From sequence record OQ349392.1: a DNA stretch of 64,000 bases, one strand, 5' to 3'. The number at the start of each line of letters is the position of its first letter. Position 1 is the stretch's first letter. Shown piece by piece: positions 11,322-16,085 of this stretch. The translations under genes were made by a program, and so were the position numbers. The notes beneath the pieces are model-generated. The model saw only the letters and a program-made list of their open reading frames with translations. It had not been told where the DNA came from and did no database searches. This stretch comes from Escherichia phage KIT06.

Positions 11322-11351
11322 AGACCCTCCTTTTAAGGATATTTATTCAAA

Positions 11352-12143
11352 TTATACTCTTGCACCATATATTGTACCAACTTTAGTCCAAGTTGGAGCA
11401 TTACCAGTAACAGCTTTACCCGCAGCACCACCCGAGTGAACAGTTCCTCCAGTACCACCTTGAATATATGAAGATTTGCCAGCAGCTCCCAAATCTCCAC
11501 CATTTCCTCCATAGTGAACCCCAGAAACAGTACCTTTACCAGGAGCAGAAATTGTACCAGCAGATGCTGCCGCGGCACCGCCTCCAGCTTTACCTGCTGC
11601 ACCAAATGGACGACCTCCGCCGCCACCAAATATCATATCCATTTGAGGGAAAGGATGGTATCTAGCACCAGCGCCACCACCACCACCACCACCGATAATA
11701 CCATTATTGTTTATTCTTAAACGAGTTCCAATTCCGTTATTTATTGCAGTTCCTCCTGCTCCACCAGCAGAGTTACTTCCGCCATTTCCTCCTCGACCTA
11801 ATACATGAACCCCGCTATTAATATTTAAGGTAACGTATGCATTAGTTAATGAGCTAGGAAAATCTAAGCATGGAACACCAGTAGATTGAGAAACAATATT
11901 TCCTGTAATAGTAACAACAACAGGAGTACTACCTTGAGATTTGAGATAATTTATTAGCGTGTCTTTATTATAAGAATTGCTAGCACCAATGCTATAATAT
12001 ACTTCTTTAGATTGTCCAGCCATTGAGCTCATCCAACCAGGAACTGAAACACGAACTGCTTTCATTGCAGCGTCCATCCAACGTTGTCCAGTTTCATTCA
12101 CGGCAGATTCACCAATCCAGCCAGGAACACCTACAATTGCCAT
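11352..12143 (-). CDS. 38: Long-tail-fibre tip adhesin gp38, T2/T6 type (263 aa), with polyglycine motifs
   Basis: Glycine runs (GGGGGGGAG, GGGGR, GGNGG) separating variable segments; lies between gene 37 and t. Confidence 0.88.
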   Translation of the reverse strand: MAIVGVPGWIGESAVNETGQRWMDAAMKAVRVSVPGWMSSMAGQSKEVYYSIGASNSYNKDTLINYLKSQGSTPVVVTITGNIVSQSTGVPCLDFPSSLTNAYVTLNINSGVHVLGRGGNGGSNSAGGAGGTAINNGIGTRLRINNNGIIGGGGGGGAGARYHPFPQMDMIFGGGGGRPFGAAGKAGGGAAAASAGTISAPGKGTVSGVHYGGNGGDLGAAGKSSYIQGGTGGTVHSGGAAGKAVTGNAPTWTKVGTIYGARV

Positions 12144-12154
12144 TAAAAATCCTT

Positions 12155-12172
12155 AGAGGGCCGAAGCCCTCT
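12155..12172 (-). promoter_or_regulatory. Intercistronic hairpin between gene 37 stop and gene 38 start
   Basis: AGAGGGC-CGAA-GCCCTCT inverted repeat on the plus strand. Confidence 0.4.
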
Positions 12173-12173
12173 T

Positions 12174-15100
12174 TTACATAAGTTTAGATTCAAGTTCTTT
12201 TACACGAGCAGAAAGTGTTTTCACAGCTTCAACCAGAAGAGCAATCTGGGCTTGAGAAGAAACAGTGAGTATTTTATTACCCTTAATATCTTCAACTTCA
12301 CGAACTGCTTCAGGTAAAACATCTTGCAGTGTTTGAGCCACAATACCCGCTTCAGTCTGAACAATTTCACCACCTATATAGTCAGCTTTATCATAGATTA
12401 AACCATCAAGCTGTTCAACCTTTTCAAGAGCATTTTCAATAGGTCTGAAATTAGATTTCAAACGAATATCAGAACGAATATAAACGTTTGGGGCGTTTAT
12501 ATTCATGTCAGAATAGGTGTCACCTGTCTGGAATCTCATTCGGCGAGCTGCATTGGTCCAAACTTCTAAAAGACCGTCGCCAACCTGTCTGAAACCAGTA
12601 TCACTATCACCTATTACAATTGAGTTACCACCAAATCCGTTGCTTGTGTTAACACCAAGCGCCCCGGTAGAACCACAAGTCAATTTAGGGGTATAGAATG
12701 TACCGTCCATATCAAAAGTCCAACGAGCCTGTTGCCCTGATGCACTGTCACCACGCATGCGAATCATGCCTTGGCGCCAAGTACCAGGAACACCTAACCA
12801 TCCAAACTCAAACGATTGGCGATAACCCGCGTCAGTTAAAAGACTGTATCCAGAAAATAACGGGTAATAAGCTTGACTTGTCTTGGGAATGCTGCCAGTA
12901 TTCGCTAAGAATGCAGAACGGTCACGAGTCACATCAGAAATATCACCAAAGCTAGTGGACCACTGTCCTGCAACTTTAACTCGTGAATTAATGTTTCCAT
13001 TAATAGTAACATCTTTACCAAAAGAAGTATTTTCGTCAAGACGAACAGTACCAGCAGTCATATCAATTGAAAATGGTCGTTTTCCATTCCAACCACCTTC
13101 TGTTGCTGTGTTATCGCCGTCTGAAGCGTTTTTGTCGGTCAGTAAAATATAGAAGGTTCCACCATCATTTCGAAATAAAGCAGAATTAGAACCTGACCTA
13201 TCAGAATTACTCGTAATACGAATACCGGTTTGGTTATTAATAGCAATTTCAGATTCTGCTACATAACGCTTAACTTTACCGCGATCAACCAAGTTATTAA
13301 GAACATTAGCAACTTGACCGTTAACTGCTGTATCTGGAAGAGCATCTACAGGTGATTGTGTAGATGAGTTAATACCAATAACGCTAACAGTAGCATTTTC
13401 GGTACATGACCATTCACACGCTAGTTGATTACAATATGTTCCGGCATAAACATAAATGTCATATGTATTTCCAGAGACATTGTTAACTGCAATATTTCTA
13501 AATGCTGCGCTATACAGTCCAGATGTTCTTGTATATAATACAGCATTTAAGTCAGCAGGTCTTTCATTACCAGTACGTAAAATAATTTCAGCAATATTGC
13601 ATTGTGTGAATAATCCACTATTAAATCCAGAACCACCGGCTATTTTAAAGAAGACCGTAGAAGTAGATTGTGGCATTGTTACTGTTGCAAACTTATACCA
13701 TCCAGAGGTTGCTCCATAAGTAATAAATCCAGAATTAACTTTACGATTTAGCGTGGTATTTAAGTTGGCAAAGTTTCCTGAACCATTGGTAATATTACCG
13801 TCAGTTCCTAGTTGGGCATTGCCGACTTTAAGAGGCTTAGTAATATCGACAGAATCAGAATTTAATGCAATACCATGTGAATGTGTGTAGCTGTGCATAC
13901 GAACGACATTGCCGCCATCACCAATACCCAAATACCATTTAGGCACATCAGCCTTACGTCCTTGAATGAAGTTAGAAGACTCTTGTGTTGGAGCATTTAT
14001 TCTAATAGCATCGCTACTTGCATTAACTGTAATACGTTGACCAGCCGTAGTTCCAGCCACTTCTACTTTAAATCTTCCACCACCGATATCTACATCATGA
14101 TCCATGGAAACTTTACCATTACTTAATGTAATATAGAATGGACGTAAATTAGAAATGCCGCCTGATTCACCGGCATTCTGCGGAGTTGGAATAATATAAA
14201 ACTTATCTTCAGAACGACGGAAAATTGCGCCATATTCAGCATTCCAAATTCTTAATGCATCTGATGTTCCGCCGATTTTAACTTGCCCAGTAATAGAAGA
14301 ACCACCTTGGACAAACAAGCCGTTCTTCATTGTAACATTACCGTTTAAAGTGCTTAAACCATCAACTTTAAGATTTCCTGCAGTGCTAATAGAACCGTTA
14401 GCATTAACTGGTCCATTGAACTGGGTTACAACGGGCCCAACAGTTTCAGAACCTTCTGGGCGCTGGCGTTGTGAATAAAAATAATAACCTTGTGAATCAT
14501 ATACTTCAAATACAGTTTCTCTAATACCGGGAACTGAGTTAAAGGCATTACCCCATGCTTTAATTGAAACAGTATTTTTATTCTGTCCGTTACGAGTGCC
14601 TGCATCCCAGTTAATAGTTTTTGTCCCGTCAACACCTGTAGGCGCTTTAAATGACAAAGCATTGGTATTATCATCACCTGATAAAAATAATCCAGTACGC
14701 ATTGAAATACGTCGGGTTGAGTCAAATGTACCATCTGCTCTAATAGCAACTCTGTTAGAACCAGTGTTAATATCTAAAATTCCTGGTTCAACAAGGAGAC
14801 CTTGGGACATACCAACAGCCATACGACCTGTACCGCGGAAATAGTGATACATTTTAGAATTACTGTTATAACCGATATGAGTCTGACCATCGCCGTTATT
14901 ATTACCATCAATATCGGTACGCGCAGTAAACATTGCTTGGTTGTTATTTGGGAAATCCCAAGTAGAACCGGAATCTCGACTATAACCAACCATCAATTTT
15001 TTAGTACTATTAATACCATTATTCAAAATGGTAGCGGATGAAATACCGTTAGCCATCAGGTCATAAACGCCATCGCGGACCCATTTAATACCGGTATCGT

Positions 15101-16085
15101 TATCGCCAATCGCAATACCAATAGAAATTGCAGAATCAAGTGGATAACGGCCATTTGTACCACTATCAGGAAGACCTACTGAAATAGATTTACCTGCGGT
15201 AATACGTCCAGTGGTATCAAATGCCCACTGGAAAGACGAAGGTCCTACGCCGGTCCACCAAGAAATTTCTTGTGGCTTTCCTGAACGACAGTCAACTATT
15301 TCATGGAAAATGCTAGAAGTATTTGAAGCCCGCATTTTACGCATGTAGTTCAATCCGTTTGTATCACGGTCAGAACCATCTGCTGGTGGATTATAAATCC
15401 AAGTAGGTAAAGAAACAATGTCATAACCCGTGTCATTATTCGGTATAAAGGTTTTAGAACTCAGGTTAATATTTTTTGTATTGACGCGCGGTGCAGAAAC
15501 AAATCCAGTTGCCGAGTTAATATTGCCTGATGCAGAAATATTACCTGCACGGACTTCAATACTGCCATTATCTACAATAAAACTACCGTTACGATTAAAA
15601 GTCCAATATTTTGAATCACCAGATTCATTGATATATTGAATTTTAAAACTACCTTCGTTTACTAACGTACCAACAGAAAAAGTTCCATCTTTATAGCGTT
15701 GTTTAATTAGCGGATGGTATTCTGAAGTAGAAGTCGTTGAACTCAAATCGGTAAAGATAGGAGCTTTATTTTTATGTTGATTTGCCCAAGCACCATTACC
15801 AGCAGTTTTAGGTAAAAATTCAATATATTTTCCTGCATAAACAAACTGATTTCCATTAAGATTATATGTACCGTTCTGTAAATAATCTCCAGTTTGAGTG
15901 ATATTTCCACTGATATTACCGCCAGCGGAAATGCTTAAGTCAATGATATTTCCTGAATCATCTTTAGTAAAAATTGTTCTATCTTTTAAGTTTATAGCCA
16001 ATTCACCTTCGGCTAATACTGAAGCAGCAGGACGTGCACCTGCGGTTTTGCTTCTTTTAAATTGTATTTGTTTTAAAGTAGCCAT
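12174..16085 (-). CDS. 37: Long tail fibre distal subunit gp37 (1303 aa) with C-terminal intramolecular chaperone domain
   Basis: N-terminal half matches T4 gp37; C-terminus has S-D-I-R-L-K self-cleavage-like motif followed by coiled-coil tail. Confidence 0.9.
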   Translation of the reverse strand: MATLKQIQFKRSKTAGARPAASVLAEGELAINLKDRTIFTKDDSGNIIDLSISAGGNISGNITQTGDYLQNGTYNLNGNQFVYAGKYIEFLPKTAGNGAWANQHKNKAPIFTDLSSTTSTSEYHPLIKQRYKDGTFSVGTLVNEGSFKIQYINESGDSKYWTFNRNGSFIVDNGSIEVRAGNISASGNINSATGFVSAPRVNTKNINLSSKTFIPNNDTGYDIVSLPTWIYNPPADGSDRDTNGLNYMRKMRASNTSSIFHEIVDCRSGKPQEISWWTGVGPSSFQWAFDTTGRITAGKSISVGLPDSGTNGRYPLDSAISIGIAIGDNDTGIKWVRDGVYDLMANGISSATILNNGINSTKKLMVGYSRDSGSTWDFPNNNQAMFTARTDIDGNNNGDGQTHIGYNSNSKMYHYFRGTGRMAVGMSQGLLVEPGILDINTGSNRVAIRADGTFDSTRRISMRTGLFLSGDDNTNALSFKAPTGVDGTKTINWDAGTRNGQNKNTVSIKAWGNAFNSVPGIRETVFEVYDSQGYYFYSQRQRPEGSETVGPVVTQFNGPVNANGSISTAGNLKVDGLSTLNGNVTMKNGLFVQGGSSITGQVKIGGTSDALRIWNAEYGAIFRRSEDKFYIIPTPQNAGESGGISNLRPFYITLSNGKVSMDHDVDIGGGRFKVEVAGTTAGQRITVNASSDAIRINAPTQESSNFIQGRKADVPKWYLGIGDGGNVVRMHSYTHSHGIALNSDSVDITKPLKVGNAQLGTDGNITNGSGNFANLNTTLNRKVNSGFITYGATSGWYKFATVTMPQSTSTVFFKIAGGSGFNSGLFTQCNIAEIILRTGNERPADLNAVLYTRTSGLYSAAFRNIAVNNVSGNTYDIYVYAGTYCNQLACEWSCTENATVSVIGINSSTQSPVDALPDTAVNGQVANVLNNLVDRGKVKRYVAESEIAINNQTGIRITSNSDRSGSNSALFRNDGGTFYILLTDKNASDGDNTATEGGWNGKRPFSIDMTAGTVRLDENTSFGKDVTINGNINSRVKVAGQWSTSFGDISDVTRDRSAFLANTGSIPKTSQAYYPLFSGYSLLTDAGYRQSFEFGWLGVPGTWRQGMIRMRGDSASGQQARWTFDMDGTFYTPKLTCGSTGALGVNTSNGFGGNSIVIGDSDTGFRQVGDGLLEVWTNAARRMRFQTGDTYSDMNINAPNVYIRSDIRLKSNFRPIENALEKVEQLDGLIYDKADYIGGEIVQTEAGIVAQTLQDVLPEAVREVEDIKGNKILTVSSQAQIALLVEAVKTLSARVKELESKLM

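Follow-up and report, generated by a model that had tools for sequence, protein, structure and literature searches.

A Peptidase S74-type chaperone domain at the C-terminus of the gp37 long tail fibre protein of Escherichia phage KIT06 and its predicted self-cleavage

Introduction

Does the distal long tail fibre protein of Escherichia phage KIT06 carry its C-terminus into the virion, or does it end in a chaperone that is removed to make way for a separate adhesin? KIT06 is a T4-like phage of the genus Tequatrovirus, and the relatives of its fibre genes offer precedents for both arrangements. In T4, which has the same fibre architecture and gene order as KIT06, gp37 binds the receptor through a C-terminal extension of its own, and gp38 serves as a folding chaperone (PMC3157838). 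For T2 and T6, the passage of PMC3157838 that cites Drexler, Riede and Henning 1986 states that the gp37 C-terminus is cleaved and that gp38 then caps the fibre. Removal of C-terminal intramolecular chaperones by autoproteolysis has been described for fibres or spikes of K1F, phi29, S16 and T5 (PMC7289586).

An original prediction made from the letters of the DNA held that the last 99 or so residues of KIT06 gp37, which start with SDIRLK and continue into a coiled-coil-like tail, are an S74-family intramolecular chaperone that cleaves itself off at the serine. It further held that the mature fibre ends near residue 1204 and is capped by gp38, and it proposed a Peptidase_S74 profile search as a check. 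Here we report a computational analysis of this locus within a window of 64,000 nucleotides of sequence record OQ349392.1, the whole stretch of DNA that was analysed, and consider what the domain, its catalytic residues and the neighboring gp38 gene imply for the structure of the fibre tip.

Results

Gene 37 ends in a single Ser-Asp-x-x-x-Lys motif and a heptad-patterned tail

The long tail fibre genes lie on the minus strand in the order gp34 (1289 aa), gp35 (371 aa), gp36 (220 aa), gp37 (1303 aa) and gp38 (263 aa), followed by a 218-aa ORF that is the counterpart of the T2 holin. Next to the fibre genes lies a 24-kb stretch that aligns over 99% of its length with Escherichia phage BF15 and its relatives, at 96-97% identity. 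Gene 37 (12174..16085, minus strand), identified from the ORF list, Pfam and the annotation of relatives, where it appears as 'long tail fiber protein distal subunit', encodes the distal subunit precursor of 1303 aa plus stop, with a calculated full-length mass of 140.4 kDa. Its Pfam domains are gp37_trimer, Gp34_trimer and Peptidase_S74. On the opposite strand, zero ORFs of at least 60 aa overlap positions 12174-12480.

Translation of the ORF places the SDIRLK motif where it had been read in the DNA: its serine is residue 1205, encoded by the TCT codon at 12471..12473 (minus strand), and 99 residues run from it to the end of the protein. The span originally assigned to the motif, 12174-12480, is correct as to the Ser codon but also takes in the stop codon at 12174-12176 and reaches 7 nt farther upstream than the Ser codon. 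The domain itself, residues 1205-1303, occupies 12177..12473 on the minus strand and is predicted, from its Pfam match, alignments, PDB profile matches and identity to T2, to be released as a 99-aa C-terminal intramolecular chaperone of 10.9 kDa. Its position is established directly by the reading frame, since it runs up to the gp37 stop and is the extreme C-terminus of a fibre protein with gp37_trimer and Gp34_trimer domains.

The coiled-coil-like tail also proved real. The last 23 residues, IALLVEAVKTLSARVKELESKLM (residues 1281-1303; 12177..12245, minus strand), have one heptad register in which I, L, V, M or F fills 7 of the 9 a/d positions, compared with 1-5 in the other registers. On the basis of this register the segment is predicted to be an amphipathic helix that forms a trimeric coiled coil. 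A single-sequence AlphaFold2 model of gp37 1184-1303 was of low confidence (pLDDT 56, pTM 0.41) and all-helical, with a helix over the C-terminal tail.

SDIRLK is the sole S-D-x-x-x-K in gp37. Given the composition of the protein, about 0.3 such motifs are expected by chance, and the bare motif is therefore no proof. A fortuitous combination of SDIRLK with a helical tail, with no homology to the S74 family behind it, accordingly has to be considered, and the expected frequency of the motif at the size and composition of gp37 is the point in its favor. That explanation is refuted by the full-model Pfam match at about 1e-14, the profile match to 6F45 at 2.4e-25 and the occurrence of related ends in 1792 phage records, described below, and its probability is effectively nil.

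The C-terminal domain belongs to the Peptidase S74 family

The Pfam model Peptidase_S74 ('Chaperone of endosialidase', PF13884) matches residues 1205-1262 of gp37 (12300..12473, minus strand) over its entire length (model positions 1-58 of 58), and the match begins exactly at Ser1205. The score was 51.9 bits (E-value 9.4e-14) when the whole of gp37 was searched and 55.5 bits (6.9e-15) with the last 148 aa, set against a gathering score of 22 bits. The profile search that had been proposed as a check thus returned a significant match spanning the full model and far over its threshold. Family membership is established by this result, together with the invariance of the Ser/Lys dyad in ten fibre ends and the ability of profiles to reach 6F45, 7DC3 and 3GUD, and the assignment to the S74 family made originally is borne out.

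Related C-terminal ends also occur in other phages. Of 50,697 phage records searched by tblastn with the last 148 aa, 1792 gave a match, including direct matches to T5-like phages (Spc35, 7e-13) and also to Vibrio, Aeromonas, Synechococcus and Thermus phages. Ten sequences were aligned, from KIT06, T2, Cronobacter S13, Klebsiella KP15, Vibrio ValKK3, a Synechococcus phage, Thermus YS40, the podovirus phi296 and two T5-like phages, and two alignments of these same ten ends were made, one covering the fibre C-termini and the other the chaperone only. Twelve domain positions are invariant in the ten fibre ends (S1, D2, K6, I12, G24, G43, A46, P54, E55, V57, L79 and L80). The putative catalytic residues Ser1205 and Lys1210 are among them, and their conservation is thereby established. 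The residue that precedes the serine varies among the homologues in the fibre C-terminus alignment, being R, S, T or Y.

The profile built from the fibre C-termini matched four structures in the PDB: S16 gp37 (6f45_A, 2.4e-25), the autoprocessing domain of human MYRF (7dc3, 7.8e-12), a tail fibre (8jov, 1e-9) and the chaperone released from the neck appendage of phage GA-1 (3gud, 5e-3). The chaperone-only profile gave the same four matches (6f45_A, 7dc3, 8jov and 3gud), and 6f45_A was also reached by the KIT06 sequence on its own (2e-7), in an alignment that pairs the Ser/Lys motifs. The deposited chain of 3GUD starts SDERHK, and its residue 1 aligns with the serine of the profile. The ten-sequence profiles did not reach T5 pb1 (4UW8) or the K1F endosialidase (3GW6) in the PDB at E-values up to 10, and bridging to T5 pb1 through the fibre end of the T5-like phage Kenya-K15 gave PDB matches to MYRF and S16 only. 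The link to these two founding members of the family, T5 pb1 and K1F, consequently depends on the Pfam model together with GA-1 3GUD, a structure that PMC4690869 terms very similar to the T5 chaperone.

The predicted cut falls between Arg1204 and Ser1205

Homology to proteins with published cleavage sites (S16, fPS, T5 and GA-1) puts the predicted cut in KIT06 at NVYIR^SDIRLKS, exactly between R1204 and S1205, which sharpens the earlier placement of the mature end near residue 1204. On this boundary, mature gp37 would comprise residues 1-1204 (12474..16085, minus strand), with a calculated mass of 129.5 kDa and the end ...NAPNVYIR. The account of S16 in PMC7917993 describes the last 113 residues, an intramolecular chaperone, as autocleaved after trimerisation at DLNVS^SDRRIKK, between two serines. 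S16 gp37 is homologous to KIT06 gp37 over the tip and chaperone and has the same Ser-Asp-x-x-x-Lys start, with the published cut right before the equivalent Ser; it differs in the length of the chaperone (113 aa versus 99 aa) and in the tip strand (DLNVS versus NVYIR), and the S16 fibre ahead of the tip is unrelated in sequence. For the fPS phages of Yersinia, which are also members of Tequatrovirus, the predicted cut is DVYIR^SDGRLKI (PMC7917993), and their five-residue tip strand is DVYIR compared with NVYIR in KIT06.

The residues proposed to carry out the reaction can be assigned by comparison with T5, in which Ser1264 is activated by Lys1269, the bond between Thr1263 and Ser1264 is cut, and the serine departs with the chaperone (PMC4690869). 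Ser1205 of KIT06 corresponds to T5 Ser1264 and is invariant in the alignments; it is the predicted nucleophile and would be the first residue of the released domain. Lys1210 (codon 12456..12458, minus strand), likewise invariant, corresponds to T5 Lys1269 at Ser +5 and is the predicted general base of a Ser-Lys dyad.

The closest known counterpart is the processed C-terminal segment of gp37 in T2 and in phages with gp37 of the T6/K3/Ox2 type. T2 provides a comparison within the genus, and it shares with KIT06 the gene order gp37-gp38-holin. The near-identity of the two chaperone domains is established by alignment: the T2 domain likewise has 99 aa and is 89% identical (88/99), with 11 substitutions, and the identity is 80% over the last 148 aa of gp37 (tblastn). 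The tip strand and the start of the chaperone, NAPNVYIR^SDIRLKS, are identical, whereas the fibre shaft upstream differs in the manner of a mosaic. The title of Drexler, Riede and Henning 1986, as given in PMC3157838, reports proteolytic processing of T2 gp37.

That title, as quoted there, speaks of processing only, and a cut after Arg would also suit a trypsin-like enzyme, so that the C-terminal piece could in principle be removed by another protease, of host or phage origin. Several observations speak against such an external activity. A single Ser-to-Ala substitution blocks cleavage of recombinant T5 pb1 (PMC4690869), and a sentence in the same source cites an equivalent Ser-to-Ala result for the similar chaperone domain of other proteins. 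Cleavage of S16 is described as autocleavage in the relevant statements of PMC7917993 and PMC7289586. Finally, the residue before the serine is not conserved (R, S, T or Y), and this variability fits self-cleavage better than recognition of a site by an external protease. Participation of a second protease is, in our estimation, highly improbable, and self-cleavage is the reading we follow for the predicted processing of KIT06 gp37.

Gene 38 encodes an adhesin-type partner

Gene 38 (11352..12143, minus strand), immediately downstream of gene 37, encodes a T2/S16-type glycine-rich adhesin of 263 aa. On the evidence of Pfam and 6f45_D, this adhesin is predicted to bind the tip of gp37 once the chaperone has been released. 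The Pfam matches are GP38 (6.2e-69) and Gp38_N (7.3e-18). Homology to S16 gp38 is established by the match to 6f45_D (4.2e-49), in which the N-terminal residues W9, W22 and W37 of KIT06 gp38 align with Trp of the S16 protein. In PMC7917993, conserved N-terminal Trp residues of this domain of gp38 are described as prongs that enter the tip of gp37. According to the section of that source on S16, autocleavage exposes the docking surface for gp38; the structural work on S16 is summarised in portions of PMC7917993, PMC7289586 and PMC9608196. The idea that the tip is capped by gp38 gains support from this adhesin-type gene next door, with its GP38, Gp38_N and 6f45_D matches and aligned Trp residues.

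A hairpin with a 7-bp stem and a UUCG loop lies between gp37 and gp38 (12155..12172, minus strand; -13.4 kcal/mol). The annotation of relatives has a terminator at this position, and the AAGGA ribosome-binding site of gp38 comes after the hairpin.

The S74 homologue might instead remain part of the virion, serving permanently as a C-terminal trimerisation module, with gp38 binding elsewhere or acting as an assembly factor like that of T4. The heptad-repeat tail could indeed hold a trimer permanently. The Ser/Lys dyad is nevertheless intact and invariant, the T2 protein, with a domain 89% identical, is reported as processed in the statement carried by PMC3157838, and gp38 is of the adhesin type and homologous to the S16 gp38 that docks on a cleaved tip. 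These observations make permanent retention very unlikely. The distal tip of KIT06 also departs from that of T4, since gp37 ends in an S74 domain and gp38 is in the adhesin family. A T4-type tip is ruled out by the Peptidase_S74 end of gp37 and the match of gp38 to the adhesin family and the S16 structure; taken together, the S74 end and the adhesin-family gp38 indicate a tip of the T2/S16 type.

Discussion

The combined evidence makes it very probable that residues 1205-1303 of KIT06 gp37 are a Peptidase S74 chaperone of the endosialidase (CIMCD) kind, in the short T2/S16 form, that trimerises the fibre tip, cleaves itself off and leaves, after which gp38 caps the fibre. That gp37 is cleaved in KIT06 is predicted by homology, and the chemistry and order of events proposed below are drawn by analogy with better characterized systems. 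By comparison with the T5 and K1F structures, the chaperone domain would bring three gp37 chains into register, its last ~23 residues forming a trimeric coiled coil; folding of the beta-structured tip may thereby be nucleated at the C-terminal end. Once the tip has trimerised correctly, Lys1210 would activate the hydroxyl of Ser1205 for attack on the Arg1204-Ser1205 bond in each chain, following the chemistry of K1F and T5. Three chaperone pieces of 10.9 kDa would then dissociate, a step in keeping with the processing reported for T2, and the mass of each gp37 chain would fall from 140.4 to 129.5 kDa with the new end at ...NVYIR1204. The S16 complex in 6F45 suggests that the flat tip newly exposed in this way would be bound by the Trp-bearing N-terminal attachment domain of gp38, and the same gp37-gp38 structure suggests that gp38, once docked, would take over receptor recognition.

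The T5 and K1F proteins have in common with KIT06 gp37 the Pfam family, the dyad of Ser and Lys (+5) and the placing of the domain at the extreme C-terminus of a trimeric fibre or spike. They also have a terminal coiled-coil helix, as is predicted for KIT06; in T5 the last chaperone helix contributes to a central triple coiled coil (PMC4690869). The T5 and K1F proteins differ in having their own receptor-binding or enzymatic domain, without a gp38-type cap. In T5, the S1264A protein stays uncleaved and shows no competitive inhibition of infection (PMC4690869). The T5 chaperone has 133 aa and beta-hairpin 'tentacles' of 50 angstroms, and those of K1F are longer still, whereas the segment of KIT06 that aligns with the T5-type tentacles, also far shorter than that of a T5-like fibre, has only ~15-18 residues compared with 40 in T5. 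The T2-type chaperones thus appear as a trimmed version of the family.

In T5, an Arg from the neighboring subunit makes correct folding of the trimer a prerequisite for cleavage (PMC4690869). When the KIT06 sequence upstream of Ser1205 was read directly for the T5 'folding sensor' Arg1250/Asp1239, no obvious equivalent was found at the same spacing; Arg residues are present at 1181, 1182 and 1184 (-21 to -24) and Asp residues at 1189 and 1193 (-12 and -16). Since the sensor is absent at the T5 spacing and the tentacle segment is short, the details of folding control may differ from those in T5. Neither the short tentacle nor the missing T5-spaced sensor distinguishes KIT06 from T2 or S16. A further reading of the T2-type chaperone is that it adds little to folding of the tip, which may depend instead on gp57A, the general fibre chaperone of T-even phages, and that it serves mainly as a removable cap and timer, hiding the docking face for gp38 until the trimer has fully formed. 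We regard this as a speculative and rather unlikely proposal; if true, it would mean that the function of the domain has shifted within the S74 family.

The detectable homology to MYRF (7DC3) extends the comparison to a trimerisation-dependent self-cleaving domain beyond phages. MYRF is a eukaryotic membrane-bound transcription factor in which the autoprocessing domain is internal and not C-terminal. Its self-cleavage releases the transcription factor and is unrelated to fibre maturation.

A self-cleaving gp37 chaperone end is already known and is an ordinary feature of long tail fibres of the T2 type, documented for T2, T6, S16 and the Yersinia fPS phages, and its predicted occurrence in KIT06 raises no new question. 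The consequences are instead practical, and they concern how this locus is annotated and used. Annotation should give residues 1-1204 as the mature fibre protein, leave the 99-residue chaperone out of the virion components, and treat gp38, not the gp37 C-terminus, as the host-range determinant of the phage. In host-range engineering, the NVYIR tip and the chaperone should stay matched with the subtype of the gp38 N-terminus, and knowledge of the chaperone is also useful for the production of recombinant fibres.

Chaperone length and homology

The S74-type C-terminal domain of gp37, a chaperone predicted to release itself from the fibre, is 99 aa long both in the window (12177-12473, minus strand) and in T2, versus 114-128 aa in two T5-like phages. 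The comparison covers the window domain, positions 544-1053 of locus L003, and columns about 165-185 of an alignment of ten phage fibre C-termini. In this alignment the longest of the two T5-like chaperones, that of Kenya-K15, carries its additional residues directly ahead of the last helix, a site matching that of the beta-hairpin "tentacle" in the T5 structure. The length difference, together with the placement of the additional residues at the tentacle site, indicates that T2-type chaperones keep only a stub of this element.

The phage domain profile also matched the autoprocessing domain of human myelin regulatory factor (MYRF; PDB 7dc3) with E = 7.8e-12. That self-cleaving trimerisation domains of phages and animals are homologous is already known; the relationship is unusually easy to see from the sequence at 12177-12473.

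Gene context and apparent exchange of the fibre tip

The intergenic spacer between genes 37 and 38 (12144-12173) contains a minus-strand hairpin (12155-12172) in which a 7 bp stem (AGAGGGC/GCCCUCU) is closed by a UUCG tetraloop. It lies 2 nt beyond the stop codon of gene 37, and on its 3′ side comes a ribosome-binding site, AAGGA, placed 6 nt ahead of the ATG of gp38. The hairpin has a free energy of -13.4 kcal/mol, with a z-score of only -1.08 against shuffles of a 61-nt piece, and a terminator is annotated at this position in the records of relatives. The hairpin probably stabilises the transcript or acts as a weak terminator, a type of element common in T-even phages. Several ORFs of 61-98 aa at 11333-11720, on both strands, run across gene 38, either in another reading frame or on the plus strand. 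They coincide with the region encoding the glycine-rich repeats of gp38 and are most likely artefacts of the biased codon content there, not genes.

Gene 37 itself (12174-16085, minus strand) is mosaic: 80% is the greatest coverage by any phage record, reached by REP4 at 96.6% identity in three pieces. The adjoining 24 kb is 96-97% identical to several phages across 99% of its length. Such a pattern is expected where recombination shuffles host-range genes.

A gene that carries the annotation of a gp38-like "tail fiber adhesin" lies directly 3′ of a fibre gene with this same S74-type domain at its end in the Escherichia podovirus vB_EcoP_phi296 (Traversvirus; locus L007, 1-1503) and in Klebsiella phage KP15 (Slopekvirus; locus L008, 1-1536). 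Since the fibre/adhesin pair is common to a Stx-phage-like podovirus and a Slopekvirus, the chaperone-plus-adhesin tip module seems to be exchanged among phage groups that are not related.
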